DNA of 64,000 nt from an uncultured Gammaproteobacteria bacterium (GCA_965231135.1 OZ246419.1:733865-797864), one strand, 5' to 3'. Counted from the stretch's first letter, positions 14,148 to 47,400 are shown. Translations and numbers: made by a program. The notes: generated by a model from the sequence alone, not told the origin.

Positions 14148-14984
14148 ATGATATTGTCTTATGCAATAACTGACAATTTAAAAGGTTATTTAAAAACAAT
14201 TCATGATTTGCGCGTTAAAATACTTATTTATCCCCTGCCAGTAAACGATGAAATAATTCTTAGATGGAAAACCGCAGAAGCTCGAGGCGACAAAGAGATA
14301 TTTGATTATATAAAACAAAATTGGTATGTAACTGCAAAAAATATTGATATTGTCACCGTTAAAAAAGTATACGAACTTGTTTCCGAAAAAAGATTCGGTC
14401 CAACATCGGGCATGATAGAATTCACAGAAAAGAAGCTAAATGAATTTTTAAAGTATTTTGAAAGTTCAAACGATCATCCGGTTATTCAGGCAGCACTCAT
14501 ACAAGCTGAAATTATTAATCTTAACCCTTTTGGGGATGTCAGCGAGAAAGTGGCAAGAATGATGTCTTATTTCATGCTTTATAAATACGGTTATGACATA
14601 CGCGGTTTAGTTAATATAGAGGATTTTTACAATGCAGATCTAGTCACATACAGAAAATTTCTGAGAATGTCACAAAACAACAGGACTGCATTTTTGGAAT
14701 ATTTTGCATATGCTTTAATGAAATCTTTAGAGAAAAAATATGACGAAACTAAAAAGATGACCGATAACATTAATAGTTTTCATGACTTTTGGAGGCTAAG
14801 TGTAAGACAGCAGAAAATACTGGAACTTTTCGAAGAGCCAAATAAAAGATTGAGGAATAAAGAGATACAAAAAATCTTCAAAATCTCACAAGTTACGGCT
14901 TCGCGCGATATGGCAAGATTATATAAATTGGGACTTCTTTTGGCTCATGGAAAAGGAAGAGGTGTTTTTTATACGAAAGCTTAG
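14148..14984 (+). CDS. Fic-family protein with a degenerate Fic motif and a C-terminal winged-helix domain
   Basis: NPFGDVSEKVAR occupies the HPFx[DE]GNGRxxR position with H, G, N and G substituted; C-terminus ISQVTASRDMARLYKLGLLLAHGKGRGVFY is wHTH-like. Confidence 0.55.
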   Translation: MILSYAITDNLKGYLKTIHDLRVKILIYPLPVNDEIILRWKTAEARGDKEIFDYIKQNWYVTAKNIDIVTVKKVYELVSEKRFGPTSGMIEFTEKKLNEFLKYFESSNDHPVIQAALIQAEIINLNPFGDVSEKVARMMSYFMLYKYGYDIRGLVNIEDFYNADLVTYRKFLRMSQNNRTAFLEYFAYALMKSLEKKYDETKKMTDNINSFHDFWRLSVRQQKILELFEEPNKRLRNKEIQKIFKISQVTASRDMARLYKLGLLLAHGKGRGVFYTKA

Positions 14985-14988
14985 CAGT

Positions 14989-30813: not shown

Positions 30814-31055
30814 TTATTTAATACCTAAATAAATCCAAACTCTATTCTCTCTGACCTTAATAAGAGCATTTGTGTCAACAACTATCTGCTGTTCATAACC
30901 TCTTTGCCTAAAAATAATTTGTTTTTCAATAATAGATATAAAATTAGAATGATCGTCTAAGATATCAAAAATACCACTTTTATTGTAGGAAGTTATATTG
31001 TCAACTTCTCCCTGAAAGACTATTTTATCTCTGTTTTTAACTAATAAACTTAGCA

Positions 31056-31056
<1 letters not shown>
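30814..31056 (-). CDS. atpC: F-type ATP synthase epsilon subunit (N-terminal beta-sandwich only, 80 aa)
   Basis: Position directly after atpD with shared boundary at 31056; LLVKNRDKIVFQGEVDNITSYNKSGIFDIL resembles the epsilon N-domain. Confidence 0.65.
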
Positions 31057-32438
<1,382 letters not shown>

Positions 32439-33314
32439 TTAAATAAATCTCCTTTGAGAAACCACTGTCGATAAATATTCTAATTGTTTTTTATTTGTTC
32501 TTGCATGAGCAAGTTTCAAATTTTGTGTTTTTGCTATCTCAAGATTTTTTCTAACCTTTTCTCCTGCCTGATCCATAGCAAGCATACGTGAGGCAAATTT
32601 GGCCAGCTGAGATTCTGTAATTGTCTGTTCAAAAATTGAAGAGAACATTTCTTTTTCGAAAAACATTAAAATTTCTTCCAGACTTGGTTCGAATAAATAT
32701 TTTATTTTCCTTCCCTTCTCGTCTTTATTTACTGGAGTTTCTGCAGATATAACTACTTCTTCTGGATCTTGATTGATTATGCTTTTAAACTTTCCATAAA
32801 AAATATGGATCTCTTCGTATTCGACCAAGTGACGAACAAGATCTCCCATCTTTTCTCTATCAAATCCGAAATCAGGAAGATCAAAATATGAATAAGATTT
32901 ATCCGGGAAAGATTGACGAAACATTTCTAAACCAAGAGTACCCACAATTGTAGCTTCGTAATCTCTTTCTCTAACTTCCTGAATAAATTTATTAAAAACT
33001 TTTCGAGTTAAATCGCCATAAAAGCCTGTATTTGCAGAAATAAATACTGCTACAGTTTTACCGTTATGACTTATTAACTTTAGTTTTTGACCGTTTTTGA
33101 TACCTTTTTTCTTTAATAATTTTTGAAATTCATCAGTGTATGATGCTTGTAATTCTTTAAATATTTGCTGCATATCTTCCAAGAATTCTCTAGAAGAAAG
33201 AACTGAACCTCTTGTAGCTTTCATGCGGCTTGAGGAGATTTGTGCATAAGCATCTGCTAATACACCTAATATTTCAAGATCAGTAACTTGTTTAGTAGTA
33301 TTTTTCTTGTCCAT
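32439..33314 (-). CDS. atpG: F-type ATP synthase gamma subunit
   Basis: Position between atpA and atpD; coiled-coil termini; ...QITESQLAKFASRMLAMDQAGEKV... matches gamma. Confidence 0.8.
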   Translation of the reverse strand: MDKKNTTKQVTDLEILGVLADAYAQISSSRMKATRGSVLSSREFLEDMQQIFKELQASYTDEFQKLLKKKGIKNGQKLKLISHNGKTVAVFISANTGFYGDLTRKVFNKFIQEVRERDYEATIVGTLGLEMFRQSFPDKSYSYFDLPDFGFDREKMGDLVRHLVEYEEIHIFYGKFKSIINQDPEEVVISAETPVNKDEKGRKIKYLFEPSLEEILMFFEKEMFSSIFEQTITESQLAKFASRMLAMDQAGEKVRKNLEIAKTQNLKLAHARTNKKQLEYLSTVVSQRRFI

Positions 33315-34737
33315 AATTTCCTTCTCTAAGCTTGTTCAGGAAGTCTGAATAAGCGGATGTTGATTTGATTAAAGAATCGATCTTATTTTTGAAATTTGCG
33401 TCTTTTTCATAATCGCTTACCATAGTTTTGATTTTTTCTTTCATTTGGAGAGGAGCCTGGTTTCTCCAAGAACCTGTCCAAAGCATTGCAATACATAAAA
33501 TACTTATATTTATAGGCATCACATCAACTGGCTGATTAAAAAATTCAAGAATCCTATCCCCCAACTTAAGCTTTTGCAAAACGTCTTCTGATAATTCTGC
33601 TCCAAAATGTACGAAGTCTCTTAATTTTTCAAGACTAACAAGAAATGAACTTAAATCACGGGTAATATCGCGAAGTAATGGAGTTTGGGCCTGTCCTCCT
33701 ACACGGGTAACTGATAAAAACGGATTAATTGGCGGGCGGCGTCCTAAGTTTGCCAACTCTGAGTCAAAGAAAATATGACCGTCTGTGATAGACATAAGAT
33801 TAGTTTGAATATATCCAGATAAATCTCCCAGGATTGATTCTGCTACAGGAAAACATGTAATTGAACCTGTTTTAAAATTTCCAGCACGTTCTAATAACTT
33901 TGAATGAAGATAAAAAATGTCTCCTGGATAAGAATTGCGGCCTGGAAAACGGCCTGCAAGAAGCGAGATCTGACGATAATATTTTGCGTGAGTTGTGAGA
34001 TCATCAAGAATAACGACTACATCTTTGCCCTGATCTCGGAAATGTTCTGCAATGGTCATAGCTGTATAAGGAGTCAAATAAATTAACCCTGGAGCATCTG
34101 AAGAAGCTGAGGCAACAATGATTGTATTTTGTAGCACCCCTTTTTTCTTAAGCGTGTTTAAAATTTCTTTTATTTCAACAATTCTTTTTCCGACCGAAGC
34201 GTAAATACAAATATTTTCTTTCTGAGTTTGATTGACAATTGTCTTAATAAAAAATTGAGTTTTTCCAGTTTTGCGATCTCCGATCACTAACTCTCTTTGG
34301 CCTTTACCGATTGGGATAACAAGATCAACAAGCGAGACTCCAGTTTCAAGAGATTCTTTTATTGGAGTTCTTGAAAGTAAATTTGGAGGTGTTGTATCGA
34401 TTTCTCTTATTGTTCCTGCAGGGCAGTTTTGATTATCTAAACAATGCCCGAGAGGATCCACTGTTTTTCCTAAAATTGCATTTGAAATATCAATTGATAA
34501 AGATTTATTTGTGCGAGCAACTTTTTGCCCAACTTTAATTGGAACATGGGACAAAACAAGAACTTCCGAATGTTCATTTGAGATAGAAATTGTCTGGCCT
34601 GTCTCTCCATTATCAAAAACAACAACTTCGTTTGGCTTTAAAGAAGGAAGGCCGCTTACGTAGACTATTGAATGCAACACTTCTTTTACTTCTCCGATTT
34701 CACCTGTTTCATTTAGATAATCTTGGTATTTTGGCAT
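33292..34737 (-). CDS. atpA: F-type ATP synthase alpha subunit
   Basis: Walker A GDRKTGKTQ; ILDDLTTHAKYYRQISLLAGRFPGRNSYPGDIFYLHSKLLERA. Confidence 0.92.
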   Translation of the reverse strand: MPKYQDYLNETGEIGEVKEVLHSIVYVSGLPSLKPNEVVVFDNGETGQTISISNEHSEVLVLSHVPIKVGQKVARTNKSLSIDISNAILGKTVDPLGHCLDNQNCPAGTIREIDTTPPNLLSRTPIKESLETGVSLVDLVIPIGKGQRELVIGDRKTGKTQFFIKTIVNQTQKENICIYASVGKRIVEIKEILNTLKKKGVLQNTIIVASASSDAPGLIYLTPYTAMTIAEHFRDQGKDVVVILDDLTTHAKYYRQISLLAGRFPGRNSYPGDIFYLHSKLLERAGNFKTGSITCFPVAESILGDLSGYIQTNLMSITDGHIFFDSELANLGRRPPINPFLSVTRVGGQAQTPLLRDITRDLSSFLVSLEKLRDFVHFGAELSEDVLQKLKLGDRILEFFNQPVDVMPINISILCIAMLWTGSWRNQAPLQMKEKIKTMVSDYEKDANFKNKIDSLIKSTSAYSDFLNKLREGNYGQEKYY

Positions 34738-34738: not shown

Positions 34739-35188
34739 TTAGAAAGAGTTTAAAGTTTCGTTTATTAATTTATTTATGGAGCCATCAAAAAATTTTCCTT
34801 TATAGGAAAAGGTTGCTCCAGCGATAATTTTGGGATCCACTTTTATATCTAAAGCAATCTTATGATCTGTATTTTTTTGTAGCCAATTAGTTATTTTTTC
34901 AATTAAAATTTCTGACGGTTCTTTTGGAATTGTTATTTCTAAAAATTCAATTTTTTCAAGAAATTCTTTTATTTTTTTTATCACTTCTTCTTTGTTTTGA
35001 CCTTCTGTTAATTTTGAAATTGTATCTGCAAATGTTTTTTTGATTTTATTTTTAAGAACAAAATCAAAATTTTCTTTTTCTTCATAAATCGACTTCTCGA
35101 GAAGATCTAAATCGTTTTCAATATTTAAAACGTCATCACGAGTTGATACAAAATTAATAATTTCAGAATAAATTTGATCGTTTTGCAT
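34739..35188 (-). CDS. atpH: F-type ATP synthase delta (OSCP) subunit
   Basis: Position between atpF and atpA; 149 aa, helical, C-terminal IIAGATFSYKGKFFDGSINKL resembles the delta C-terminus. Confidence 0.6.
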   Translation of the reverse strand: MQNDQIYSEIINFVSTRDDVLNIENDLDLLEKSIYEEKENFDFVLKNKIKKTFADTISKLTEGQNKEEVIKKIKEFLEKIEFLEITIPKEPSEILIEKITNWLQKNTDHKIALDIKVDPKIIAGATFSYKGKFFDGSINKLINETLNSF

Positions 35189-35684
35189 TTTCTAAAGCCT
35201 TTAAAATAAGTTCGTCTTGTTTATTGTCATCAATAGAGCTTGAAACTATATCTGTAAATTTGCTTTTTAAGAGATCGTTTGCAGTTTTTCTAATTCTTTG
35301 AAATTCACTTGCTTTATATTTTTCAATTTCGTCTTTTGCGATATCGTATTCTGCAGAAACAGCTTTATCTTCTCCCCTTTTTTCTTCTATTAGATCTTCG
35401 ACGGTTTTCCTTTTTATTGAGTTTGCAATATTTTTAGCATTCTTTTCTATAAGTTCTACTGCTTCTAAACTTGCTTTTTGAATTGCATCGTCTAATTTCT
35501 CACTTGTAATACGGCTTGTATCAAGGTTTATTTTTCGTTTTATTTCATTTTTTTCAATATTTAATTTAAGATTTGTGTACTTATCAAGCGTTTTTTTATA
35601 TAGGAAAACTAGATACAAAACACAACCTAAAAGGACTGCAGTTATTAACATAAAAACTATAAATATAATTGACAAAATACTCAT
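35163..35684 (-). CDS. atpF: F-type ATP synthase B subunit
   Basis: A single N-terminal TM helix followed by a long charged coiled coil; operon position. Confidence 0.7.
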   Translation of the reverse strand: MSILSIIFIVFMLITAVLLGCVLYLVFLYKKTLDKYTNLKLNIEKNEIKRKINLDTSRITSEKLDDAIQKASLEAVELIEKNAKNIANSIKRKTVEDLIEEKRGEDKAVSAEYDIAKDEIEKYKASEFQRIRKTANDLLKSKFTDIVSSSIDDNKQDELILKALENAKRSNLF

Positions 35685-35688: not shown

Positions 35689-37386
35689 TCAGCTTAATAG
35701 ATTTTTGCCTGTCATGACAGGTGGAATTTCTAAACCTAATAATTTTAAAATTGTTGGAGATATATCAGCAAGGATTCCTTTTGGAATTTGTTTATTAGAT
35801 CTAAATAAATTTTTACTTACAGCGATGAAAGGCACTGGATTTGTGGTGTGATCTGTGCTCATTTTCCCTTTGTCTGACGTAAAAAAGAAACTGCTTGAGT
35901 CATATCTAAGTTTTTGTTCAGCATTTCCATGATCTGCTGTAATCAATAACGTACCATTACAAACCATAACACTTTCGGCGATTTCTTTAAGGCATGCATC
36001 GACTGCTTTAATGGCTTTAATAGTTGCTTGTATATTTCCAGTATGCCCAACCATATCAGCATTTGCTATGTTCATAACAATAAATTTATACATGTCTTTG
36101 TTTAAAACTTTTTTAAATTCTTCGGTTAAAGAATAAACTGACATTTCCGGCTTTTTGTCATATGTTGGTACATGGGGAGAAGGAACAATTGCGACGTCTT
36201 CTCCTTCCTGCTTCTCTTCCCGAAGGCCGTCAAAGTAATAAGTTACAAAACGCTCTTTTTCGCTTTCTGCCATATGCATTTGTTCAATATTATTTTTTGA
36301 AAGAATAACAGACAAACAATCAGAAACTATTTCAGGCGGAAAGCCGATGTCATTTACTGGGATATTTTTTTGATATTGTGTCATTGTTACAAAATAAAGG
36401 TTTGATAATACCCCTCCTCTTGCAAATGGCTCTTTATCTAAAACAACTTCTTTATCTCCTTCGTGTTTATGTTCGTAATCAACAGCGTAAGGGTCAAATT
36501 CCCATGTTAAATTTGATTTTGTAAAATCTTTTATAACAAAAGACATCGTAAGCTGTCTTGGTCTATCAATTCTAAAATTAAAGAAGACCGCAGCGTCGTT
36601 ATTTTCAACCAAACCGTTTTTGTTAATAATTGTTGGTACGATAAATTCATCAGTAATACCTGCAGCGTAGCTAGCCTTTAAGGCTTCGCTTGCTGAAGTT
36701 GCTGTTGGACCGATTGCTTTTACCATTGCCTCATAAGTTTTTTTAGTACGATCCCACCTTTTATCGCGGTCCATTGCATAATATCTTCCAGATATTGTTG
36801 CGATTTGGGCAGATTTTGTCTTATTAAGATAATCTTCGAGTTTTGTAACGACATTAATTCCCTCCTGTGGAGGTGCATCACGACCATCTGTGAATAAGTG
36901 AATATAAATAGGTCTTGTGTTATTTGTTTTTTGGAAAAATTCTAGTAGTGCATATAAATGATCTATAGATGAATGAACTTTTCCTGTACTTACAAGCCCC
37001 ATGATATGAATTTTGGAATTATTTTTTTGTGCGTGGAATCCGGCATGATAAAAAGCTCTGTTCTCAAAAAAAGAACCATCCTGAATTGCTTTATTTATTT
37101 TTGGAAGATCTTGTAAGATTACACGCCCAGCTCCGATATTTAAATGACCTACTTCAGTATTTCCCACTTCATTTGCCGGTAAACCAACAGATTCTCCTGA
37201 TGCTAAAAGTTCTGAATGCGGGTAGTTTGCAAGTAGATTGTTATAGTTATCTGGATTTGCAAGAGTAATTGCATTTCCATCTGATGCCGGAGCTATTCCC
37301 CATCCGTCAAGTATGACTAGAACAACCGGATTTGTTTTTCCGGCATTTACTTTTACTTTTGGTTTTGAAAAAAGACTAAAAAACAT
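35689..37386 (-). CDS. gpmI: 2,3-bisphosphoglycerate-independent phosphoglycerate mutase
   Basis: N-terminus VVLVILDGWGIAP; ...NADMVGHTGN...; 565 aa, typical iPGM size. Confidence 0.88.
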   Translation of the reverse strand: MFFSLFSKPKVKVNAGKTNPVVLVILDGWGIAPASDGNAITLANPDNYNNLLANYPHSELLASGESVGLPANEVGNTEVGHLNIGAGRVILQDLPKINKAIQDGSFFENRAFYHAGFHAQKNNSKIHIMGLVSTGKVHSSIDHLYALLEFFQKTNNTRPIYIHLFTDGRDAPPQEGINVVTKLEDYLNKTKSAQIATISGRYYAMDRDKRWDRTKKTYEAMVKAIGPTATSASEALKASYAAGITDEFIVPTIINKNGLVENNDAAVFFNFRIDRPRQLTMSFVIKDFTKSNLTWEFDPYAVDYEHKHEGDKEVVLDKEPFARGGVLSNLYFVTMTQYQKNIPVNDIGFPPEIVSDCLSVILSKNNIEQMHMAESEKERFVTYYFDGLREEKQEGEDVAIVPSPHVPTYDKKPEMSVYSLTEEFKKVLNKDMYKFIVMNIANADMVGHTGNIQATIKAIKAVDACLKEIAESVMVCNGTLLITADHGNAEQKLRYDSSSFFFTSDKGKMSTDHTTNPVPFIAVSKNLFRSNKQIPKGILADISPTILKLLGLEIPPVMTGKNLLS

Positions 37387-37389: not shown

Positions 37390-38160
37390 TTAAATAATTA
37401 AAACTAGATAAGCTGCAACTAGGCCTACAAGAACAATCGCAATCATGACTGCGACGTTTATAATAACGCTTGCCTGAATACGGATTCCTGCCAAAGGATT
37501 TCTTCCGATTGCTTCAACTCCCGTTTTTGCAATACGGCCAAAGTAGACAAATCCTATGACAAATGATGAAATAACAAGAATTGAGGCGAGAATGTAACGA
37601 AGGGCAGAAATAGGACTTATACCCAAACCTGCAAGGCCGTTTTGTAAAAGAGAAACTAAATTTGTTCTTGCATTTAAATTTAAATCTGTTCGCGGATGGA
37701 TATTTAAACTTGCTTGAATGGTTCCAATCGCATTTTTGTCAGTAGAATTGTAATCCTGAAGAGCTGTTCCAATCACAAAACCAGGATTAATTGATAACTC
37801 TGCCACTCCCGGAATTTTAGAGCTTGTTAAGAAATCTCCCTTTTTAATTTCTCCATTTATAGAAGAAACTCGAAGAGGAACTTCACCTCTTGAAACTACT
37901 GTTTGAGAATTAGTTAAGTCTACTATTTGTACATCTGCTGAAGGATTGGAGTCTACAACCCCATACATAGAAGAGTCGTATTCATTTTGACAGAGAATAT
38001 AGCCTGATGATCCCGAACAAATTATGTCTCCGTCTTGGATATTATTACCACTAACAGAAATTGAAGAACCCACATCTGTAAAAGATTGTGTCTGAGCAAA
38101 AACATTATTTGTACTTAAAATTCCTAATATAAATATTACTAATAAAATTTTTTTGGGCAT
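37390..38160 (-). CDS. Secreted/membrane protein: signal peptide, about 170-aa Cys-containing extracellular domain, C-terminal two-helix hairpin resembling an F0 c-subunit fold
   Basis: Signal peptide MPKKILLVIFILGILSTNNVFA. Hairpin ...FGRIAKTGVEAIGRNPLAGIRIQASVIINVAVMIAIVLVGLV resembles c-subunit helix1-ARQPE loop-helix2 but has no helix-2 carboxylate. The extracellular domain is homologous to the C-terminal domain of the neighbouring giant protein. Confidence 0.55.
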   Translation of the reverse strand: MPKKILLVIFILGILSTNNVFAQTQSFTDVGSSISVSGNNIQDGDIICSGSSGYILCQNEYDSSMYGVVDSNPSADVQIVDLTNSQTVVSRGEVPLRVSSINGEIKKGDFLTSSKIPGVAELSINPGFVIGTALQDYNSTDKNAIGTIQASLNIHPRTDLNLNARTNLVSLLQNGLAGLGISPISALRYILASILVISSFVIGFVYFGRIAKTGVEAIGRNPLAGIRIQASVIINVAVMIAIVLVGLVAAYLVLII

Positions 38161-38323
38161 GGCGTATTAAGTAATACTACTTATTACCAAAACACTGGTC
38201 AATACCCTATCGAAAAAAATAAGTTGCTTATTGACAAGCTACTTTAATAAATGTCTTAATGTATATACAAAATCTTGGACAATGTCTAAATTTTTGAAGC
38301 TAATATAAAAATATTTAAATACT

Positions 38324-41300
38324 ATGAGTAAACTGCCCCGAAATAAATATATCTCCATTAATGAAGCTGCAATAAAACTTGGAGTATCTACTAAAACCTT
38401 AAGAAGATGGGAAGTTGCTGGAAAACTTATTGCAGTAAGAACTAATGGCGGCCACAGAAGATATGAAATTTCAAAACTTACAGAGTTAAAGATAAATGGT
38501 TTTAAGACGCCAAGAAAAGAATATATAAAGAAAATTGTTGTTAATCAAACTGTTAGTGATACCCCGAAAATAATTAAGATAGATAATATAGTAGAACCTC
38601 TTAAAATAAACCCTAATATCATCACTGAAGCATTACCTACTCCAATAGATATATATAATGCCCCAACGCTTGCACCTCAGCAAAAAAATATTCTAAAAAT
38701 AGTTGGTTTTTCTTTTTTTGGTTTTATTTTGATTGCAGGAGTATTTAAAATTTCTCCCGCAGTAATCTCCGCAACGAACTTATTCAAAGCTAATGCGGAT
38801 AATATTGCGGTAAATTACTTTCCAGGTATGCCTGGTGCTGTTAAAAGTTTTTTAAGCTCCAGGAATAATAATTTTGCGGATAATAAAGATGTGGCCTCAA
38901 AATTTGGACAAAATGTCCAAGTTTTGGCAGCAGAGACAAAAGCTAATGTCCCGGTTTTTAATGTAAACATTGAGTCTTCTTTTAAACAAGTTGCGGATTT
39001 TGTAAAGGGTTTAACATCAACCGATGTTTCAACTGGAACGCTGGAAGCATCAGACAATGCAACTTTTGCAAAAAATGTTGATATATCAGGCGATTTGACT
39101 TCATCAAGTGCAACATTTAATTTATTACCAAAAAACGTAACATCTCTTAATATCGGACTTACCTCAACTACAACAAGTATTTCAGCAACAACCGGTACTA
39201 CTACTATTAATAATGATTTAAATGTTAAAGGTGCCACCGCTCTTTCTGGTGCTCTTAATGTCGGTGGTAAGATTACAGGAAGCGGAGATTTAGCAATTTC
39301 GGGAGCAAGCGTATTGTCTGGAGCTTTAAATGTTTCTGGAGTGACGACACTTGCATCAGACCTCTCAGCGGCAGGAAACGCAACATTTGGCAATATTACT
39401 AAAGTTAATGGAGTGACTTATTCATTTCCTACAACTCAAGGAGCAGGCGGATCTACGTTAACTAATGACGGTTCGGGAAATCTCAGTTGGGTTAGCGGAA
39501 GTGGCAGTGGAACAATCGGTTTTTGGACAAGAACTGGAACAATATTAACACCAGCTACTGAAGGAGACACAATAGCAACTACCGGACAAATTGGAGCAGG
39601 AACAACAACACCAAGCTACCAGCTTGATATACAAAACCCAATTTCAGCCAACAACGGTATTCTTGCCAACTTTGCTTTATCAAATTCAAATACCGGAGCT
39701 GGAATCATTACAAACGGTATAAACGTATCTGCAACCGGGTCTATTCCAGCGAGCGGAACTAATACGAATAACCTTATTAATCTTTCAGCAATAACTGCTG
39801 GAAGTAATACTTTTAATGGAATAAATTTTGGTTCAGGTTTATCAAACTATATAAATAGTACAAATTTCATTGTCACTGCCGCTGGAGCAGAGACCCTTAA
39901 TTCTTCTTTGGTTGCAGTTGGAGTAAATGCCCAAAGCGGACTTCTTCAAGGCACAGGTGGACTAACTTTAACTGGGACAACAAATATAAATAGTACAGGA
40001 GTTGCAAATACTACTGTTGGTAATACAAGTGGAACGCTTGCTTTATCTTCTAACGCTTTTAACCTTGATACTTCAGGAAATATAACAGGAGTTCCAAGCT
40101 TAGATACAATCAACGTTTCATCTACTGCCTTAACATTTGCAGGAGCTGGAACAATTGATTCAGGAACAGCAAACGCTCTCAATCTTGGGACGGGAAATAA
40201 CGCAAAAACCATAAACATTGGAACAGGAAATGCTGGCAATATTATTAATATAGGAACAAATGATACAACCGCTGATGCAATTAATATTGCAAGCGCAAAA
40301 GACACCACTACACTTGCAGGCAACATTAGTCTTACTAATTTATCACTTGGCACTGGAAGTGCTTTGTGTTTAGATGGATCAAACAATTTAGTAACATGTA
40401 CTACTGGAACAGGCGGTATTTCTGGAAGCGGTGCAAGCGGACAAATTGCATATTATAACGGGGCAAGTAGCATTACAGGGAATAATAGTTTTTTCTGGAA
40501 TACGGCAACCACACAGCTCGGAATCGGAACAAATTCAACAACAGCTGGAGTTACTATTGCTGAAAATAGCGGTGACTTAATTGATGCTGGAACAACATCA
40601 AGCACTAAATTTACTCTTGATAATTCTGGAAACATTTTAGTTTCTCCTTCAACAAGATATGATACATTAACTTCCGGAACTCTTGGCGTCGGAACAACAA
40701 ACGCCACAACAGTAAACGTAGGAAACCTGAGCTCAACTACAAATTTAATTGGGGCAACAAATATTAATACAACAGGAAGCGGAAATACAACGATCGGCAA
40801 CGGAAGCGGAACTGTGGCTTTAAATCTGGGATCTGATGCAACTGGAGATATTTATTACAGAAATTCCGGTGGAACCTTAAGTAGACTAGGGATTGGATCG
40901 TCAGGACAAACATTAACAGTTTCAGCTGGAATCCCAAGCTGGGTTGGAGGCTCTGGAGGGACTGGAAGCTCGGGTTTTTGGAGTAGGACATCAGGGGGTG
41001 TTTTATCACCTGCAACAGCAACAGATACATTCAATCTAGCTCCTAATACAACAAACGGAACTGGAGTGAACGCTGGATTTAATTTGCAAGCAAACTCATT
41101 AACAAGTGGAAACGCTGTTGACATATCAAGCAGCTCAATAACAAGCGGTAATTTATTATCACTTTCTTCTACTTCAACGGCTTTTACATCTGGAGCAATT
41201 GCAAACCTCAGCTGGTCACCAAGTGCTTCAACAACTGCAACTGGAGATTTATTAAAACTTAATGTTGGTTCTAATGGAATTTTAGGTAATATTCTTGATG

Positions 41301-44300
41301 TACAAAATAATGGTTCAACTATATTTGGAGTGAGCCAAACTCAAATAATAGCTGCTCTTCCAACACAGTTCACTGCAGCTGGAGATGTTGGATTTGCATA
41401 CGATGTTAATTTTACAAATCCGGTTGCAAGTAATATCAAGTCCAGTTCTAATCTTAATATTGCTGCTGGCGAAACATTTAATTCATCAGATCTGACTTTG
41501 ACAACATATAATGCCGGAAATATTTTACTAAATACAGGTACAAGCTCGACAGGAAACGGGAAAGTTGGAATTGGGCCGTCAGTTACCCCCACTTCCTTAC
41601 TTACAGTAAACAATGCAAATGAATTATCAAACATAGGACAATCATTAGCTTTATTTAATCAGACTGAAAATCAAGATATTATGACCGCCAGCAATTCAGG
41701 GACAACAAGATGGACACTTGGATATCAAGGAAATATAACGGGAACTGCGGTAAATACCAGCGGCAACAGCTATAGTTACACGAATACAGCACTTAATACA
41801 ACAAGCGCAAATCTTCAGGCACTGGCATTTACAAATGCTGCATCAAGCGGAAGCATAACAGTAAGCGGAGAAAATATAACTGCAACAGGAACTGCAACTT
41901 CTGGAACAAACACTAACAATCTAGTAAATTTAAGTGTTGCAGCTGCGGCAAGTAATAACACATTTAATGGTATTAATTTTGGAAGCAATTTAACTAACTA
42001 TATAAATGGAACAAATTGGGTGGTAACAGCAGCAGGAAATGAAACGATAGCAGGAATAAATGTCACAGGACTTACAGCAAACTCAGCTGTATATACTGAT
42101 GGAAGCAAGAATTTAACAACATCAGCCCCAAGCTCTGGAGCTCTTGGATATTGGACTAGAACAGGAACTACACTCTCACCTACTACAAGCGGTGATGCTG
42201 TGACAACTTCTGGAAATATTTCTACAACTGGGTCAGGAACTATAACTAGCGCGTCAGATCTGGCGGTTAACGGATCAAATTTCACAAGTAGTTCAAGCTC
42301 GTTTAACCTACTGAATTCAACCCCAACAACTATTAATTTTGGGGGAAATGCTACAACTGCACTTAATATCGGCAATGGAAATAGTGCCTACACTGCAATA
42401 AACTTTGGAAGTGGAACCGGAGGCAATACAATTGGTATTGGAAATGGAGCTAACACAGGAGCGCAAACGATTAATATCGCTGCTGGAGCAGCAGGGGCAA
42501 ATTCAACAGTAAATATTTTATCAGGAATTGCAACTTCCGGGACACAGACACTTAATCTTGGAACAGGAGCTTCTGCAAAAACAGTAAACATCGGTAATTC
42601 AACAGGCGCGACAGCACTGAATTTCACAAGCGGTACAGGAGCTCAAACATTTGCATCAAGTGTTGTAACTGGCACGACAACCTCTGGAGCATTTGCATTC
42701 AATGCAAACTCTTTGACAACTGGCGATGGACTTTATCTTAATTCGTCTAGCATAACAACAGGCAATCTGCTAAATATCACATCTACCTCCACTGCTTTCA
42801 CTTCAGGTAATTTGGCAAGCATTTATTGGAACCCAGGATCTTCTACTACTGCAACTGGAGATTTATTAAAACTTAATGTTGGTTCTAATGGAATTTTAGG
42901 TAATATTCTTGATGTACAAAATAATGGTTCAACTATATTTGGAGTAAGCCAAACTCAAATTTCAAATAATTTACCAGTTTCATTTAATGCTCCTGGAGAT
43001 ATTGTTGATGCATATGACTTTTCATTTACGAATCCAGTTTCAAGCAACATAAAATCTTCTGCTCCGCTTACTATTGCAGCTGGCGAAATATTTAATTCTT
43101 CTAATTTGACTTTAACTACATATAATCTTGGAAATATATTATTAAATAGTGGAACAAGTACGGGTGGAAACGGACTTGTTGGAATTGGCCCTTCAGTATC
43201 TCCTACTTCACTTTTAACAGTTGATAATACCAATGAATTGTCGACAATCGGCCAATCTCTTGTACTTCTTAATCAAACAGAAAGCCAAGATATTTTAACA
43301 GCAAGCAATTCAGGAACAACAAGATTTAAGATAAATTCTGCTGGAAACACATTTACAACTCTAAGAAGTACAGGAACTGCAGCACTTTGTCATACTACAA
43401 ACGGAGCAGGATTTGATGAAATAACAGATTGTTCTGGAACTCCAGCTGCAGATTATGCTGAGTTTTATCCAACAGACGGAAGCGTTGATTATGGCGATAT
43501 CGTTGCTCCAAGCAGCCAAACCGTAACAACTAAAGTAAGCGACGGTCAAGGAGGAATAATTACCGGACAAACACAGCAAACTTCAGTTTTAACAAAGTCT
43601 AGTTTAGCTTATCAAGGAAATGTGATCGGAATAGTATCGAATAACTATAATGACTTTACATCAACCGGATACAATATAGTTGATCCTTCAAATAATCCAA
43701 AGCCAGTTGCTCTTAATGGACGTGTTCCCGTAAAAATTGCAACAGATTCTCCTGAGATTGCTCCAGGAGATTATCTTACAACTAGCGATCAACCTGGACG
43801 CGCAACTAAAGCTACACAAGCCGGAAGAGTTATTGGTATGGCACTTGAAAACTGGAGCTCTTCAAGCGGCAAAGATACAGTATTGGTTTTTGTAAATAAT
43901 ACCTGGTACGATCCTAACGCTGATGCAATCGCTGCAACAGGAAGCGCACAACTAAACAACATTGCATTAATGCTTCAAGATAGCTTTACAGCAAGCGATA
44001 GCGGAATTATTGCAAACTTACACGAGCTTGATACTGCAAAATTGAATGTACTTGGAGATACGACTTTGGGAGATACAGTTGTAAACGGCAAGCTTAATGT
44101 TGGCGGATTGACATTTGATGATACTAATCAATCAATAAATGCAATAGGCGTTTTGAAAATTCAAGACTTAGCTTTGGGAAATGTTGAATTTATGAACGGA
44201 CTGATAACTTTTGATACAAACGGAAATGCAAAGTTCCAATCTGTTACTGCTAATAAATATAATGTTGCTGGAACATCGGCTGGAACAGGCACAATTACAG

Positions 44301-44494
44301 CTGGAGCAACAAATGTTATTATTAATACTAATGCTGTTAACAACAGCTCTTTAATCTTTGTAACCGCAAGCACAGCAACAAGCAAGGTTTTAGCGGTAAC
44401 AACAAAGGTTCAAGGAACAAGTTTTACAGTTTCGATTCCGACAGCAGACATCAATAATATTAATTTCAATTGGTGGATTGTTGACAAACAATAA
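38324..44494 (+). CDS. Giant (2056 aa) membrane-anchored repetitive Ser/Thr/Gly/Asn-rich protein with an N-terminal cytoplasmic HTH (excisionase/MerR-type) domain, one TM helix, and a long beta-helix-like repeat region
   Basis: HTH YISINEAAIKLGVSTKTLRRWEVAGKLIAVRTNGGHRRYEI (nt ~38345-38500); TM ILKIVGFSFFGFILIAGVF (nt ~38690-38747); internal duplicated modules; a non-repetitive Cys-containing C-terminal domain (~43.3-44.5 kb). Confidence 0.75.
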   Translation: MSKLPRNKYISINEAAIKLGVSTKTLRRWEVAGKLIAVRTNGGHRRYEISKLTELKINGFKTPRKEYIKKIVVNQTVSDTPKIIKIDNIVEPLKINPNIITEALPTPIDIYNAPTLAPQQKNILKIVGFSFFGFILIAGVFKISPAVISATNLFKANADNIAVNYFPGMPGAVKSFLSSRNNNFADNKDVASKFGQNVQVLAAETKANVPVFNVNIESSFKQVADFVKGLTSTDVSTGTLEASDNATFAKNVDISGDLTSSSATFNLLPKNVTSLNIGLTSTTTSISATTGTTTINNDLNVKGATALSGALNVGGKITGSGDLAISGASVLSGALNVSGVTTLASDLSAAGNATFGNITKVNGVTYSFPTTQGAGGSTLTNDGSGNLSWVSGSGSGTIGFWTRTGTILTPATEGDTIATTGQIGAGTTTPSYQLDIQNPISANNGILANFALSNSNTGAGIITNGINVSATGSIPASGTNTNNLINLSAITAGSNTFNGINFGSGLSNYINSTNFIVTAAGAETLNSSLVAVGVNAQSGLLQGTGGLTLTGTTNINSTGVANTTVGNTSGTLALSSNAFNLDTSGNITGVPSLDTINVSSTALTFAGAGTIDSGTANALNLGTGNNAKTINIGTGNAGNIINIGTNDTTADAINIASAKDTTTLAGNISLTNLSLGTGSALCLDGSNNLVTCTTGTGGISGSGASGQIAYYNGASSITGNNSFFWNTATTQLGIGTNSTTAGVTIAENSGDLIDAGTTSSTKFTLDNSGNILVSPSTRYDTLTSGTLGVGTTNATTVNVGNLSSTTNLIGATNINTTGSGNTTIGNGSGTVALNLGSDATGDIYYRNSGGTLSRLGIGSSGQTLTVSAGIPSWVGGSGGTGSSGFWSRTSGGVLSPATATDTFNLAPNTTNGTGVNAGFNLQANSLTSGNAVDISSSSITSGNLLSLSSTSTAFTSGAIANLSWSPSASTTATGDLLKLNVGSNGILGNILDVQNNGSTIFGVSQTQIIAALPTQFTAAGDVGFAYDVNFTNPVASNIKSSSNLNIAAGETFNSSDLTLTTYNAGNILLNTGTSSTGNGKVGIGPSVTPTSLLTVNNANELSNIGQSLALFNQTENQDIMTASNSGTTRWTLGYQGNITGTAVNTSGNSYSYTNTALNTTSANLQALAFTNAASSGSITVSGENITATGTATSGTNTNNLVNLSVAAAASNNTFNGINFGSNLTNYINGTNWVVTAAGNETIAGINVTGLTANSAVYTDGSKNLTTSAPSSGALGYWTRTGTTLSPTTSGDAVTTSGNISTTGSGTITSASDLAVNGSNFTSSSSSFNLLNSTPTTINFGGNATTALNIGNGNSAYTAINFGSGTGGNTIGIGNGANTGAQTINIAAGAAGANSTVNILSGIATSGTQTLNLGTGASAKTVNIGNSTGATALNFTSGTGAQTFASSVVTGTTTSGAFAFNANSLTTGDGLYLNSSSITTGNLLNITSTSTAFTSGNLASIYWNPGSSTTATGDLLKLNVGSNGILGNILDVQNNGSTIFGVSQTQISNNLPVSFNAPGDIVDAYDFSFTNPVSSNIKSSAPLTIAAGEIFNSSNLTLTTYNLGNILLNSGTSTGGNGLVGIGPSVSPTSLLTVDNTNELSTIGQSLVLLNQTESQDILTASNSGTTRFKINSAGNTFTTLRSTGTAALCHTTNGAGFDEITDCSGTPAADYAEFYPTDGSVDYGDIVAPSSQTVTTKVSDGQGGIITGQTQQTSVLTKSSLAYQGNVIGIVSNNYNDFTSTGYNIVDPSNNPKPVALNGRVPVKIATDSPEIAPGDYLTTSDQPGRATKATQAGRVIGMALENWSSSSGKDTVLVFVNNTWYDPNADAIAATGSAQLNNIALMLQDSFTASDSGIIANLHELDTAKLNVLGDTTLGDTVVNGKLNVGGLTFDDTNQSINAIGVLKIQDLALGNVEFMNGLITFDTNGNAKFQSVTANKYNVAGTSAGTGTITAGATNVIINTNAVNNSSLIFVTASTATSKVLAVTTKVQGTSFTVSIPTADINNINFNWWIVDKQ
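41235..41346 (+). repeat. 112-nt direct repeat (copy 1) inside the giant gene, part of a roughly 1.6-kb diverged internal duplication
   Basis: Identical to 42849-42960 except one mismatch (gtgagcc vs gtaagcc); encodes GDLLKLNVGSNGILGNILDVQNNGSTIFGVSQTQI. Confidence 0.85.
42849..42960 (+). repeat. 112-nt direct repeat (copy 2)
   Basis: See copy 1; the flanking protein sequence is about 70% identical over roughly 500 aa. Confidence 0.85.
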
Positions 44495-47400
44495 TGAAAA
44501 AACTTTTCAAAAGAAAACCAAAATTATTTTACGGACTTATACTATTTATAGTAGTTATATCTTTAGTTGGAATAAAACTTTGGGCGGGTAAACCAGTACA
44601 AGGAGCATGGTTTGATACCAAGTGGGCTTTTCGACAACGCTTCCCTATTTCCAATACCTCCGGTGCAACACAAACAAATTTTCAGACGCAAATAACATTA
44701 GACACTTCAACATTAATAAGTGCAGGGAAAATGCTTTCGACTTGTAACGATTTGCGAATTACAAATGCAACTGGAAAACAACTTCCTTTTTGGATAGAGC
44801 CAACTACATGCAATACAGCTTCAACTTTAATCTGGATAAATGTTGATTCGATTCCAACAACAGGAGCTGATGTTTATTTATATTATGGAAATCCATCTGC
44901 AAGCCCTGCAGGGTATACAACTAACCAAGTTTTTATTACAGATATGAATCAAGCTGTTGCGGGTTGGCCTTTGGATGATACAACCACTACCCAAAGTTAT
45001 GCGAGAGCAGTGAATGGTGCGACTAGTACAGGAAGAAATTTAGTTTTAAACGGAACTTTTGATAGCAGCTCAAGTTGGAACTTTAATGGGACAGGTTGGA
45101 CTATTTCTGGTGGGATGGGAGTGGCTACAAACGCACAAACTACTGACCTTACTTATCAAAATGTTCCTTTGGTAGCTGGAAGAAGTTATCAAATCACTTA
45201 TACCATTTCTGGTTATACCTCAGGAAGTGTCAGGGTTCTCGCAGGAAATGGTGGCTTTGGAACGATGCGCTCAGCAAATGGAACATACACTGAAAATATT
45301 ATTGCAGCCGGAGCTTTATATGTGGGATTCCAAATTCCAGTGAATGGAACAACCCTAAATATTGATAACGTTTCAGTTACTGAAGTAAACATTCCCTCTT
45401 CTACTGCAACACCAACACAATTACTTACTGATGGAAATATGGAAGCAAGTGGGACGGGGGCGTGGACAGCAGGCGGAAGCGCAACACTTTCGAAACAAAC
45501 AGGGACTTCCCATGGAGGAACACAAATTTTAAGAATCACTGCAACCGGTGGTACAAATCCTAATGCTTCTCAGAATATTCTTTCTAACAATACTGTTTAC
45601 AGGGTTTATGGATATGCAAGAAGTGATGGGAATATTGCACCTAAAGTTTATTTGGGAAGTAATCTTATGTGGACTGGAACAACATCGGCAACCTGGCAAC
45701 CGTTTGACTTTGTAGGTTTAACTTCTACGGGTAATAGTACTTTTTATCTGCTTCAATCAAGCAGTATAAATGGCCAATATGTAGAATTTGACGACGTAAC
45801 AGTTTCCCTTGATACAGGCATAAGAAGTGATTCTATTTTATCTACACTTGATGGAGATATGGAACAGTCTGGGACTTCTTACTGGAGCACATTAAATGGC
45901 GCTACGATCTCGAAAGATGCCAGCAGTCCACATGGCGGAACTCAATCTTTAAAGATAGTCAGCTCTGGCGCCTCAAGCCAGAATGTATACCAGACTTACC
46001 TATCTAGCGTTGCAGGAAAAACTTATCGAATTACTGGGTACGCAAGAGGAGATGGAACTGCTGTTCCTCAAATTCTTTTACCAAACGGAGCTGCTTTGTG
46101 GACCGGAACAAATTCAAGTTCTTGGCAATCATTTGATGCAACGTATGTATATGTAGCTGCTTCTCCATACGGATCTCCAATTTTAAGGCCTCAAAATACT
46201 GCTCCTAACGGCGATTATGTTGAATTTGATGATATTATCATTAACGAAGTCGATCCTCTAGTTGGAATCCCTACAAACGGAGTAACTCTTGGAGCTAGTG
46301 CAAACGGCCATCTCACTAATGCATATTCTTTTGATGGCACAAATGATAATGTGAATATTTATTCAGGAAGCTTAAATTCTGTCTTTAATCCTTCTGAAGG
46401 AACAATTGTGGCATGGGCAAAAGTAAGTGGAGCTGGAGTGTGGACAGATGGAACTCAGAGAGTGATTGTGAGAATTGGCCGTGTGGATGGAAATAATAAT
46501 TTAACTATTTCCAAAAGCGCGTCATCTAATACACTTACGGCTTCTTATGTTGCTGGAGGGTCAAATTTAACTGCTAATACAACTACTTCAACAAGCGGAT
46601 GGTTTATGGTTACACTAAGCTGGTCTAAGAGCAGTGACCAGGTTAAACTTTATTTAAACGGCACGCAATCAGGATCGACTTTGACAGGAGTTGGTACATG
46701 GAGCGGAAATTTTCAAAGCGTTAACTCAGTTATTGGAGATGCAAGTACAACACCCGGTTTTCCATGGAGCGGGCTCATTAATGATGTACGAATTTATAAT
46801 TACGCATTAACACCGGCCCAGATTGCCGCACAATACAACGCATCTTATGACACACAAAACTACACAACTGCAAACGATACAGGACACGAATTGGTGCGAG
46901 AGTACAATACAAACATTACAGTTGGAGCGGCTGCAACAGAAGAAGTTGGGCAAGCTTCAATATTAAACTGGCATTTGGACGAAGGAAATGGAACAACTGC
47001 AAACGATGCAAGCACAAATGCAAATAACGGAACTTTAGCTGGCACTACTCCACCATCCTGGCAAACTGAAAATAATTGTGTAATTGGTAAATGTTTGCTT
47101 TTTGACGGACAGAGCTCAAAAATAACTGGAACAAAGGCAGCTAATAATTTGCAAACTGTAGCTTTCTGGATTTATCCAACTGATATAACAAGCCGCGGGA
47201 TTATGAACTTAGACGGCGGAACTCACAAAATATCTTTGAGTTCGTCTGGAATTGTAACTGCTACAGGCTGGTCTTCTCCAACATATTATGTAAATGGTAT
47301 TGCAACAACAAATCCTGTTTTATCCTTAAATCAATGGCAGTATGTGGAAATTACAACAGCAACACCTTTCTCTACTTCAAGCTCTTTTACAGTCGGGACT

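Follow-up and report, generated by a model that had tools for sequence, protein, structure and literature searches.

A beta domain common to a c-subunit-like membrane protein and its divergently encoded giant neighbour

Two divergently transcribed genes, separated by a spacer of 163 bp, encode a membrane protein of 256 residues and a giant of 2056 residues in a 64,000-nucleotide stretch of DNA, referred to here as the window. The initial annotation had proposed that both proteins share a Cys-containing extracellular domain, N-terminal in the small protein and C-terminal in the giant. Are these regions truly homologous, and if so, for what is the same domain used in two such different proteins? 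The two ORFs were recovered with exactly the coordinates and sizes reported before, and all features are collected in Table 1.

One homologous domain in two neighbouring proteins

Residues 59-140 of the small protein aligned with residues 1776-1847 of the giant at 35% identity (BLASTP, E=8e-11). The small ectodomain scored 48.5 bits against the giant and, because this lay far beyond 300 shuffled controls (mean 17.5, SD 1.9, maximum 25.4; z=16), the similarity claimed in the initial annotation stands. Alignment of the small-protein family (A1, 40 sequences) to the giant-module family (A2, 20 sequences) with hhalign reached a probability of 99.6% (E=9.6e-25, 126 columns) and spanned residues 28-156 of the former and ~1709-1861 of the latter, while AlphaFold models of the two copies, made independently, displayed identical top structural neighbours. 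One homologous beta domain of ~130-155 residues is common to both proteins.

Its register had been only partly recognised. Among the motifs paired earlier, G(R/E)VP(V/L)(K/R), GD(Y/F)LT(T/S)S..PG.A and G.VIG.AL(E/Q) were correctly matched; the Cys pairs and YG-x-(I/V)V were mis-registered. C48 and C57 of the small protein, conserved in at least 90% of its family, lie within the domain, in a region that aligns with 'YGDIVAP...(27-aa beta-hairpin insert)...VLTKSS' of the giant, whereas C1689 and C1703 of the giant lie upstream of the domain, before A1709-D-Y-A-E. Likewise, 'MYGVV' of the small protein corresponds to 'VIGIVS' (1767) and not to 'VDYGDIVAP'. Since the two Cys pairs do not correspond, the common part is not a Cys-containing domain. 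The proposed extracellular location fits the topology of both copies, given the signal peptide of the small protein (A22 and Q23 being conserved in at least 90% of the family) and the transmembrane segment that follows a cytoplasmic HTH in the giant.

The small-protein family comprised at least 305 homologues, with 569 representatives at E<=1e-30, and the fusion gene was present in at least 354 species genomes of Microgenomates (Woese-, Levy-, Ames- and Shapirobacteria).

Table 1. Features of the window around the two divergent genes (positions counted from the first nucleotide of the window)
Feature	Coordinates	Strand	Description
Epsilon, 80 aa	30814..31056	-	Matches only positions 1-80 of ~130-residue epsilon models; PF02823 recorded for orthologues
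F1 beta	31056..32438	-	TIGR01039 464.7 bits (cutoff 462.85); Walker A GGAGVGKT and GERSRE readable
F1 gamma, divergent	32439..33314	-	PF00231 E=7e-25; TIGR01146 71.5 bits (cutoff 194)
F1 alpha, divergent	33292..34737	-	PF00006 E=3e-71; NF009884 436 bits (cutoff 554)
Delta (OSCP), divergent	34739..35188	-	PF00213 E=2e-8; TIGR01145 32.4 bits (cutoff 57.5)
b-like subunit	35163..35684	-	173 aa, N-terminal TM and charged helical region; assigned by position and shape
iPGM (phosphoglycerate mutase) gene	35689..37386	-	Between fusion gene and b gene; PF06415/PF01676
Small fusion-protein gene	37390..38160	-	256 aa: signal peptide, beta ectodomain, linker helix, c-subunit-like hairpin
ATP-synthase c-subunit-like two-helix hairpin	37393..37614	-	Residues 183-256; helix 2 without acidic residue
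Cytoplasmic loop G219-R-N-P222	37495..37506	-	Invariant; counterpart of c-subunit R-Q/N-P loop; aligned to ARQP of 2wie
Linker with predicted helix	37615..37692	-	Residues 157-182; AlphaFold helix 164-181, pLDDT 60-74 (lower confidence)
Shared beta domain, small-protein copy	37693..38079	-	Residues 28-156, including conserved C48/C57 hairpin
Signal peptide	38095..38160	-	Residues 1-22 (MPKKILLVIFILGILSTNNVFA/Q); hydrophobic N-terminus, inferred cleavage site at the slash
Operator-like imperfect palindrome TTGGACA-A-TGTCTAA	38275..38289	.	35-49 nt upstream of the giant's ATG; unique in the window
Giant gene	38324..44494	+	2056 aa: cytoplasmic HTH, one TM, T/G/S/N-rich repetitive fibre region, gp12-type module, terminal domain
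N-terminal MerR/BldC-like HTH	38348..38491	+	Residues 9-56; PF00376 E=6e-10, 39.2 bits (gathering score 28.2)
Single transmembrane segment	38687..38773	+	About residues 122-150; hydropathy windows 122-132 plus 19 residues
Internal repeat copy 1	41036..41734	+	Residues 905-1137; 70% identical over 233 aa to 1443-1675
Internal repeat copy 2	42650..43348	+	Residues 1443-1675
Shared beta domain, giant copy	43448..43918	+	Residues 1709-1865, with 27-aa beta-hairpin insert
D1710-Y-A-E1713	43451..43462	+	Counterpart of phi29 gp12 D692-F-A-E695, start of released auto-chaperone fragment
Terminal beta domain	44042..44491	+	Residues 1907-2056; resembles C-terminal domains of K1-capsule lyase/depolymerase tailspikes

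A fold known from phage appendages and capsids

As modelled, the domain has the fold of the C-terminal auto-chaperone (D4) of phi29 gp12 and of phage capsid cement or decoration proteins, a fold known as a trimer-forming, homo-oligomerising module; the beta fold of the released D4 fragment (PDB 3gqh) was recovered. BFVD yielded 55 matches at E<1e-3, among them 'preneck appendage protein barrel' and DUF2190. Structurally, both the module and the terminal domain had only phage proteins as closest relatives. Matches of the family to cement-protein HMMs were weak, PF23982 (XM1_gp53_minor_capsid) being found in 14 of 40 members (best 2.5e-6) and PF09956 (Phage_cement_2/DUF2190) in three of 40; the window proteins themselves scored below the threshold of both. 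Pfam Peptidase_G2 did not match the giant's module, isolated modules matched no Pfam family at E<=10, and neither a phage relative by tblastn nor BLAST-level similarity to gp12 was detected.

The HMM of the giant module matched residues 680-854 of gp12 (translated from EU771092) with p=4e-6 and collinear motifs, so that ..PAA/D1710YAEFYP.. of the giant stands opposite ..TWS691/D692FAEYFE.. of the phage protein (the slash precedes the start of the released gp12 fragment). This D-x-A-E motif was displayed by all 12 module-bearing large ORFs and by none of the 87 small proteins. In gp12, the trimeric D4 acts as an auto-chaperone and is cut off once folding is complete (PMC4690869, PMC13317679, PMC3357383). 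An autochaperone or anchoring module reused in both proteins, which the initial annotation had offered as its second choice, came close to this evidence, namely the gp12 D4/cement fold and the motif kept in the giant.

The common domain is therefore taken to reflect re-use of a phage-derived oligomerisation module, once as a fibre auto-chaperone and once as the extracellular part of a rotor subunit not coupled to ions; we assign this reading a probability of about 0.6. In its architecture, the giant resembles a tail fibre or tailspike of a phage that is anchored in the cell membrane, and its module may nucleate fibre oligomerisation and folding. The module retains the D-x-A-E motif with which the released gp12 fragment starts, so self-cleavage between A1709 and D1710 is probable. 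In the small protein, the beta domain comes right after the signal peptide, without D-x-A-E, and would form the extracellular head of the c-like hairpin. Cleavage at the giant's motif would free 347 residues, another folded domain included.

The initial annotation had preferred interaction or co-assembly of the two proteins through the domain. In this reading the two copies would bind each other, the giant fibre docking on the small protein via mixed beta-domain oligomers. Should the small protein form a ring, the fibre would then dock onto the ATPase ring, and the domain would be an interface instead of two independent uses. This appears unlikely. A divergent HTH giant upstream of the fusion gene was kept in 63 of 75 loci, both copies are predicted to be extracellular, the fold is a homo-oligomeriser in gp12 D4 and cement proteins, and all complete giants of at least 1815 aa adjoining the fusion gene carried the module; yet six complete HTH giants (720-1598 aa, one in a closed chromosome) had none, although the small protein was always present. 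The domain also occurred away from its supposed partner, both in large ORFs that do not adjoin the fusion gene (L068, L070) and in proteins of other CPR groups, namely Uhrbacteria and Saccharibacteria. Co-variation within genomes was not seen, same-genome small/giant pairs being no more alike than cross-genome pairs: those of loci L001 and L003 gave no BLAST match at 1e-3, whereas the small protein of the window matched the giant of L003 at 45% identity. Finally, to judge from its D-x-A-E motif, the giant's copy should be severed from the fibre it would have to dock.

A hairpin resembling subunit c, encoded first in a divergent F1 operon

The small protein had been called a membrane protein; its c-subunit-like hairpin and its position at the head of an F1 operon had been overlooked. 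The fusion gene is the first of the operon, with alpha downstream on the same strand in 68 of 69 loci. Three variants were encountered among 68 loci, in which fusion and alpha genes were separated by iPGM, b and delta (n=35), by b and delta (n=26), or by nothing (n=7). The latter class, which lacks b and delta, includes a closed chromosome where the fusion gene overlaps the alpha gene; because both subunits are absent, the classical rotor-stator mechanism cannot hold in these seven loci. No a-like ORF or canonical c gene was found in the window or in ~1.2 Mb of flanks (86 loci). The b-like ORF of 173 aa is conserved in relatives and matched no family.

PDB matches of the hairpin were c-subunits only, with E-values of 0.003-0.014, and hhalign aligned it to subunit c end to end (E=5e-5, probability 68%). 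PF00137 matched five of 40 relatives (E<=0.1), and some family members carry the JGI name 'subunit c'. The 256-aa protein of the window had no Pfam match at E<=1, and its sole NCBIfam match was the c equivalog NF005608, at 16.6 bits for a cutoff of 128. Judged on sequence alone, homology to subunit c is thus weakly indicated.

GRNP was invariant in 87 of 87 family ORFs and is the most conserved part of the whole protein; in c-subunits, the R-Q/N-P loop contacts gamma/epsilon. Not one of the same 87 ORFs displayed Glu or Asp in the TM2 core, the position aligned to the ion-binding site being occupied by I, A, L, V, F, G or M, with a conserved Asn/His/Gln five residues before it. The Gly-rich GxGxGxG packing motif, a hallmark of c-subunits, is absent from helix 1 (consensus ..SFxLGFxYFGR.., with only G203 and G208 invariant), and for this reason a c-type ring is not assured.

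Under the re-use of a phage-derived module favoured here, the hairpins would assemble into a ring resembling a rotor, and its invariant GRNP loops would dock the foot (gamma/epsilon) of the divergent F1. Since the ring would be devoid of acidic residues and no a-subunit gene accompanies it, the enzyme would not be an ion-coupled ATP synthase, but an ATP-hydrolysing F1-like machine which turns, or is anchored by, a ring with an extracellular crown of beta domains. The giant possibly docks physically on this crown. The symmetry of a ring of ~10-15 subunits would match that of a trimer-forming head only if the number of subunits were divisible by three. Canonical atpB/atpE may be encoded elsewhere in the genome, the searched sequence consisting of the loci and their flanks, in which case the fusion protein would be an accessory rather than a rotor.

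This leads to a further reading, slightly less probable again than mutual binding, that the 256-aa protein stands outside the ATPase, its hairpin being a mere two-helix anchor (convergent, or a decayed c relic) while the a and c genes of an ordinary synthase lie elsewhere. Split atp operons occur in other bacteria, and the search, which covered loci and flanks, leaves room for one; beta just clears the atpD equivalog cutoff, and the hairpin falls below curated c-subunit thresholds and lacks the Gly-rich motif. Against this stand the position of the gene, which is that of atpE, directly before b or alpha, in 68 of 69 loci, and the strongest conservation falling precisely on the gamma/epsilon-contacting loop. 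Alpha, gamma, delta and epsilon lie well under their equivalog cutoffs, as expected of an enzyme freed from ordinary constraints, and seven loci dispense with b and delta, which are indispensable to an ordinary synthase. The lack of a or c genes in all flanks examined points the same way, as does the report that ~30% of sampled CPR have no genes for the canonical complex (PMC10656485).

Implications and comparison with known systems

It is scarcely credible that a prophage left the giant and its module behind as the remnant of a tail fibre, alike to the small protein by accident of a phage insertion beside the atp operon. Although the nearest structural relatives of module and terminal domain are all phage proteins, the sequence searches returned no phage relative. 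The annotated genes adjoining the cluster have housekeeping or surface-protein functions (leuS, iPGM, atp genes, LamG giants, TPR protein), with no capsid or other phage genes among them. Synteny on the chromosome extends over dozens of species whose proteins are 38-60% identical, and the giant starts with a cellular-type HTH and a TM anchor.

A more far-reaching version of the re-use reading, which we regard as tentative and rather doubtful, is an undescribed rotary machine of Microgenomates. It would combine a divergent F1, an ion-blind c-like ring without a-subunit and phage-derived extracellular beta domains, with torque coupled to the neighbouring giant fibres and the fibre gene under control of its own membrane-tethered BldC-like HTH acting on TTGGACA repeats. 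If true, ATP hydrolysis would turn an extracellular crown instead of pumping ions, and coupling to the giant fibres might serve, for example, host-cell attachment or movement.

The giant's copy resembles gp12 D4 (PDB 3gqh/3suc; MEROPS/Pfam Peptidase_G2 type) in its boundary motif, (S/A)/D-x-A-E-aromatic-aromatic, in the collinear 'IIGVIS' and 'GxxxVRI/VKI' motifs and in its location C-terminal to a long fibre-like region, here ~1550 repetitive, T/G/S/N-rich residues. It differs in that Ala instead of Ser precedes the Asp and in that the module is not at the extreme C-terminus, ~190 more residues (a coiled segment and a beta domain) following it. Gp12 is a virion appendage whereas the giant is a membrane-tethered cellular protein, and the small protein's copy is N-terminal and devoid of the cleavage motif. 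Cement proteins (HFTV1 8qsy, TW1 5wk1, XM1 7kmx) are, like the small ectodomain, single domains of ~130 residues. In the two proteins of the window, by contrast, the domain is either joined to a membrane hairpin or part of a protein of 2056 aa, at a locus with cellular annotated neighbours and no phage head-gene module.

With F-type subunit c (AtpE; PF00137, COG0636; Spirulina c15 ring, PDB 2wie), the small protein shares a two-TM hairpin of ~75 residues with a short polar loop (G-R-N-P for A-R-Q/N-P), a gene directly upstream of those for b/delta/alpha/gamma/beta/epsilon, and an orientation that places both ends outside, as befits an ectodomain at the N-terminus. In contrast to subunit c, it has neither the ion-binding Glu/Asp nor the helix-1 GxGxGxG, remains below Pfam and NCBIfam thresholds, is not accompanied by an a-subunit gene and is extended at its N-terminus by a signal peptide, a beta ectodomain of 130 residues and a linker.

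The N-terminal HTH of the giant, likewise overlooked when its ORF was correctly delimited, found its best NCBIfam match in BldC (residues 14-55, E=2.4e-10, 40 bits, below the family cutoff of 77). It is followed by a linker and then the TM segment, not by a coiled coil. BldC of Streptomyces is a MerR-like DNA-binding domain without dimerisation helix, and it binds direct repeats as head-to-tail multimers (PMC5859096). Upstream of the giant, TTGGACA half-sites, conserved in 56 of 69 intergenic regions, were arranged as inverted or 10-nt-phased direct repeats, with the 10-mer present in 30 of 69 loci (at most nine in shuffles). Unlike BldC, the HTH sits at the cytoplasmic end of a membrane protein of 2056 aa, and the repeats are a putative operator.

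The F1-like ATPases of Mycoplasma (type 2 gliding motor MMOB1660/1670; type 3 MSC_0618/0619), thought to work mechanically on large surface proteins and not to make ATP, offer the closing parallel. They too have divergent alpha/beta/gamma-like genes without Fo a/c, and the alpha subunit of the window scored nearly as well on N-ATPase alpha and MMOB1660 models as on atpA (378 bits on MMOB1660, 392-436 bits on atpA). Scores remained below the Mycoplasma cutoffs (NF045863/NF045858, NF045936/NF045934) for both alpha (378 vs 600 and 271 vs 520 bits) and beta (371 vs 850 and 393 vs 570 bits). Mycoplasma-specific partner genes are absent, the phylum is a different one, and the CPR operon retains delta, b and epsilon in most lineages, plus a c-like membrane subunit. 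If the rotary machine is real, CPR would have their own equivalent of the 'F1-like X0' motors of Mycoplasma, in which, however, an output shaft derived from a c-ring crosses the membrane in CPR only.

The shared beta domain and its structural relatives in phages

The two divergent ORFs described in the initial annotation, a small protein and a giant, were recovered with the same coordinates and sizes and are separated by a spacer of 163 bp. Residues 59-140 of the small protein aligned with residues 1776-1847 of the giant at 35% identity (BLASTP, E=8e-11). The ectodomain of the small protein scored 48.5 bits against the giant and 300 shuffles gave 17.5 +/- 1.9 (maximum 25.4), which places the similarity far above the shuffled control that had been proposed as a check (z=16). 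An alignment of 40 sequences of the small-protein family matched an alignment of 20 giant modules over 126 columns with 99.6% probability (hhalign, E=9.6e-25). As all three approaches agree, the claim that both proteins have a domain in common stands beyond doubt. The residue pairing proposed with it was partly revised by profile alignment: GRVPVK, GDYLTTS..PG and VIGxALE had been matched correctly; the Cys pair and YGxIV had not. C48 and C57 of the small protein are located inside the domain, opposite 'YGDIVAP...(27-residue insert)...VLTKSS' of the giant, while C1689 and C1703 of the giant are located upstream of it; 'MYGVV' of the small protein faces 'VIGIVS' and not 'YGDIV'. A further Cys pair of similar spacing was encountered at giant residues 682/692.

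Features of the locus, in window coordinates
Feature	Position	Strand	Size or content
Epsilon gene	30814-31056	-	80 residues
Cofactor-independent phosphoglycerate mutase (iPGM) gene	35689-37386	-	glycolytic gene
Small-protein (fusion) gene	37390..38160	-	256 aa
Operator-like element	38275-38289		abutting half-sites, palindrome
Giant gene	38324..44494	+	2056 aa
HTH of the giant	38348-38491	+	MerR-type
Duplication in the giant, first copy	41036-41734	+	residues 905-1137
Duplication in the giant, second copy	42650-43348	+	residues 1443-1675
First LamG giant	44494-52242		2582 aa
Second LamG giant	52268-58741		2157 aa
TPR protein	58784-60829		

The model of the small protein (pLDDT 87) displayed a beta domain at residues 28-153 and, C-terminal to it, a helical hairpin. 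Its structural neighbours included capsid stabilisation, decoration and cement proteins (8qsy 13.1, 9ocb 11.6, 5wk1 9.7, 7kmx 9.0), and a viral structure library yielded 55 matches at E<1e-3, including large uncharacterised caudoviral proteins, a 'preneck appendage protein barrel' and DUF2190. Fourteen of 40 family members reached PF23982 (XM1 gp53 minor capsid) and three of 40 reached PF09956 (Phage_cement_2). The C-terminal 377 residues of the giant, modelled separately, displayed a pLDDT of 84-98 across the module (the giant's copy of the domain). The shared homologous beta domain has the fold of cement proteins and of gp12 D4, the C-terminal domain of phage phi29 gp12 (PDB 3gqh). Nothing useful came of scanning isolated modules as single sequences against Pfam and PHROGs, the sole hits being phrog_673 (E=0.01) and, for the terminal domain of the giant, PF24146. 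The giant-module profile retrieved nothing relevant from PDB sequences, and none of 50,697 phage genomes was matched by the module in tblastn. The phage link is present only at the level of fold and profile. A reading of the locus as a prophage remnant was rejected because synteny and neighbouring gene content speak against it.

In phi29, the trimeric, beta-structured D4 of gp12 acts as an auto-chaperone and is cut off once the tailspike has folded (PMC4690869, PMC13317679, PMC3357383). According to phi29 gene 12 (translated from EU771092), the released fragment 692-854 starts after ...TWS691 with D692-F-A-E-Y-F-E; the module of the giant starts after ...TPAA with D1710-Y-A-E-F-Y-P. The giant-module HMM matched gp12 680-854 at p=4e-6, pairing (module/gp12) aDlaevya/SDFAEYFE, ekviGivs/EKIIGVIS and ALaGrvpvkv/GLLGQIAVRI. 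D-x-A-E was found at the module boundary in 12/12 module-bearing large ORFs of the collected loci and in 0/87 small-family proteins, the mature N-terminus of which begins exactly there. From these sequences, the copy of the giant is probably an intramolecular chaperone of the gp12 type that cleaves itself off, in contrast to the copy of the small protein. Three features weigh against full membership of that type: the Pfam Peptidase_G2 model did not match the module of the giant, the residue preceding the Asp is Ala in the giant and Ser in gp12, and, unlike in gp12, a further domain comes after the module. The giant is probably a membrane-tethered, tail-fibre-like surface fibre, the oligomerisation of which would be nucleated by the C-terminal module, with a probable cut between A1709 and D1710. 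A gp12-type module with a predicted self-cleavage site, and likewise a membrane-tethered HTH accompanied by a conserved operator-like element, is open to direct test and should help to annotate the numerous CPR giant genes that lack an explanation.

The giant, its neighbours and the operator-like element

The giant begins with a cytoplasmic MerR-type HTH (PF00376, E=6e-10), the best subfamily of which was BldC (E=2.4e-10, under cutoff), followed by a single TM segment (~residues 122-150) and a T/G/S/N-rich region. Its N-terminus thus resembles a DNA-binding domain that is tethered to the membrane and joined to a giant fibre. Segment-wise BLAST uncovered a duplication of 233 residues at 70% identity; shorter matching blocks were residues 485-525/1201-1242 and 401-436/1277-1315. 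A divergent HTH-bearing large ORF was located directly upstream of the fusion gene in 63 of 75 loci. By HMM, all complete giants of 1815 aa or more contained the module, and six complete ones of 720-1598 aa did not. Giants with the same HTH and TM N-terminus ranged from 1400 to >6000 aa in relatives.

Two LamG giants, with DUF2341 and six to eight Laminin_G_3 domains, come after the HTH giant and are followed by a TPR protein. The ATG of the first overlaps the stop codon of the HTH giant by one base, and the same order of HTH giant and LamG giant was found in a related locus (L001).

The intergenic regions share a conserved element: AACTTGGACA was present in 30 of 69 intergenic loci and AACTTAGACA in 16 more, shuffles giving at most nine. 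It is usually located 36-68 nt upstream of the start of the giant and is built from the half-site TT(G/A)GACA. Most Woesebacteria-like loci displayed an inverted TTGGACA-N12-13-TGTCCAA, the window and L001 a palindrome of abutting half-sites, and Levybacteria-like loci direct-repeat arrays phased by 10 nt. TTGGACA could be read as a mere -35 box; this was judged unlikely because the half-sites form inverted pairs or 10-nt-phased arrays and because the element is unique in the window, being found upstream of none of its other genes. The candidate binder is the BldC-like HTH of the giant itself. Direct repeats are bound by BldC in the form of head-to-tail multimers (PMC5859096); autoregulation by the tethered HTH is therefore a reasonable hypothesis.

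The c-like hairpin and the ATPase operon

The last 75 residues of the small protein matched only ATP synthase c-subunits in PDB (E=0.014 with the single sequence, 0.003 with the profile). The hairpin aligned end-to-end with a small alignment of seven canonical c sequences (E=5e-5, 68% probability), a result that is supporting only. Its sole NCBIfam hit was a subunit-c equivalog, far under the cutoff of that model, and several family members were annotated as subunit c by JGI. In c-subunits an R-Q/N-P loop contacts gamma and epsilon; its counterpart here, G-R-N-P, was invariant in 87/87 family proteins. The position of the ion-binding Glu was always occupied by I, A, L, V, F, G or M in these 87 proteins, none of which displayed Asp or Glu anywhere in the core of helix 2. 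Asn, His or Gln was conserved five residues before the ion-binding position, and helix 1 lacked the GxGxGxG motif in the family alignment. Both termini of c-subunits are outside, which fits an N-terminal secreted domain. The family comprised 569 representatives (50% identity clusters) at E<=1e-30, nearly all of 250-270 aa, and was found in at least 354 species genomes; its named hosts were all Microgenomates-group bacteria. A few members (P0263, P0273, P0279) reached 446-538 aa; in these the fusion architecture is C-terminal and is preceded by 230-325 additional residues.

Genes for iPGM, b-like, delta, alpha, gamma, beta and epsilon follow 3' of the fusion gene on the same strand. Among the loci examined (exact-protein fetches and 80 loci from species genomes, 354 genomes being matched), alpha was downstream on the same strand in 68 of 69 informative ones. 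Fusion gene and alpha were separated by iPGM, b and delta in 35/68 loci, by b and delta only in 26/68, and were directly adjacent, sometimes overlapping, in 7/68 (L022, L037, L043, L065, L070, L076 and L082). The glycolytic iPGM gene, which sits between the c-like gene and b in the first group, was absent from the rest. In the seven b/delta-less loci, F1 and a c-like ring would have no peripheral stalk. In three of the seven, alpha is a shortened protein of 429-434 aa. In L065, which is from a closed chromosome, the fusion gene overlaps alpha, and a gene for an unrelated M32 peptidase lies after epsilon; in L043, epsilon is directly followed by a free-standing 72-aa HTH protein (14769-14987 of that locus), excisionase/MerR-like by eye.

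F1 of this operon is divergent, as judged from model scores: beta reached 464.7 bits (cutoff 462.85), alpha 436 (554), gamma 71.5 (194), delta 32.4 (57.5) and epsilon 27.6 (67.25). For alpha, the canonical model scored little higher than the models of N-ATPase and of the Mycoplasma gliding motor. Catalytic motifs were readable in beta (GGAGVGKT, GERSRE) and in the P-loop of alpha (GDRKTGKT). The match of the window epsilon to epsilon models was confined to their N-terminal part; the C-terminal helices, which are regulatory in typical bacterial epsilon, are missing. Within the window and ~1.2 Mb of flanks, canonical c queries retrieved fusion ORFs only, and neither BLAST nor jackhmmer (E<=10) nor a motif-plus-TM screen revealed an a-like ORF. 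Three multi-TM ORFs 3' of some operons, considered as displaced a-subunits, were rejected on reading their sequences, one being UppP-like and two 7-TM-like without the R..N motif. Loci L007, L008, L011, L014-L018 and many others, all with this Microgenomates-type operon, come from third-party-annotated MAG records that bear the name 'uncultured Gammaproteobacteria' or 'Pseudomonadales' bacterium; from the gene content, these names look wrong.

Proposed machine and known systems

What defines a rotary ATPase is a carboxylate on the c-ring that works against subunit a. Judged by its genes, the Microgenomates operon, a widespread and clade-specific version, keeps the F1 head and the docking loop without the carboxylate, without an a gene in the operon and, in some lineages, without the stator stalk. 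Several features are established: a cleavage-site motif confined to giants, a c-like hairpin in which the carboxylate is missing and the docking loop is invariant, a divergent F1 tightly linked to it in the operon, no nearby a or canonical c, and a wide distribution. The small protein may form a ring that binds the foot of F1 and bears an external crown of beta domains, every ring subunit carrying an extracellular phage-type domain, and the enzyme would hydrolyse ATP without ion coupling. The neighbouring giant genes and the F1-like motors of Mycoplasma suggest that torque or anchoring might be used on surface structures. Lineages without b and delta show that the classical stator is dispensable, and they are left unexplained by a simple rotor model.

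If these genomes are truly without canonical a and c, the complex that many metabolic reconstructions of Microgenomates count as a present or partial 'F-type ATPase' can neither pump ions nor use an ion gradient to make ATP, and these fermentative, host-dependent bacteria spend ATP on work outside the membrane. They would then offer a natural case in which an F1 motor was given a new purpose by way of its c-ring, and the long-standing question of how rotary ATPases gain new outputs would become testable.

In full-text literature searches, neither a c-subunit fusion nor an F1 operon without a was found described for Microgenomates. According to surveys, many CPR bacteria have no canonical complex or 'minimal' ones only (PMC10656485), and some Saccharimonadia encode only F1 (PMC9166423). 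Carboxylate-less c/K subunits are very rare, with 20 F/N-type cases among 48,143 enzymes (PMC11738941).
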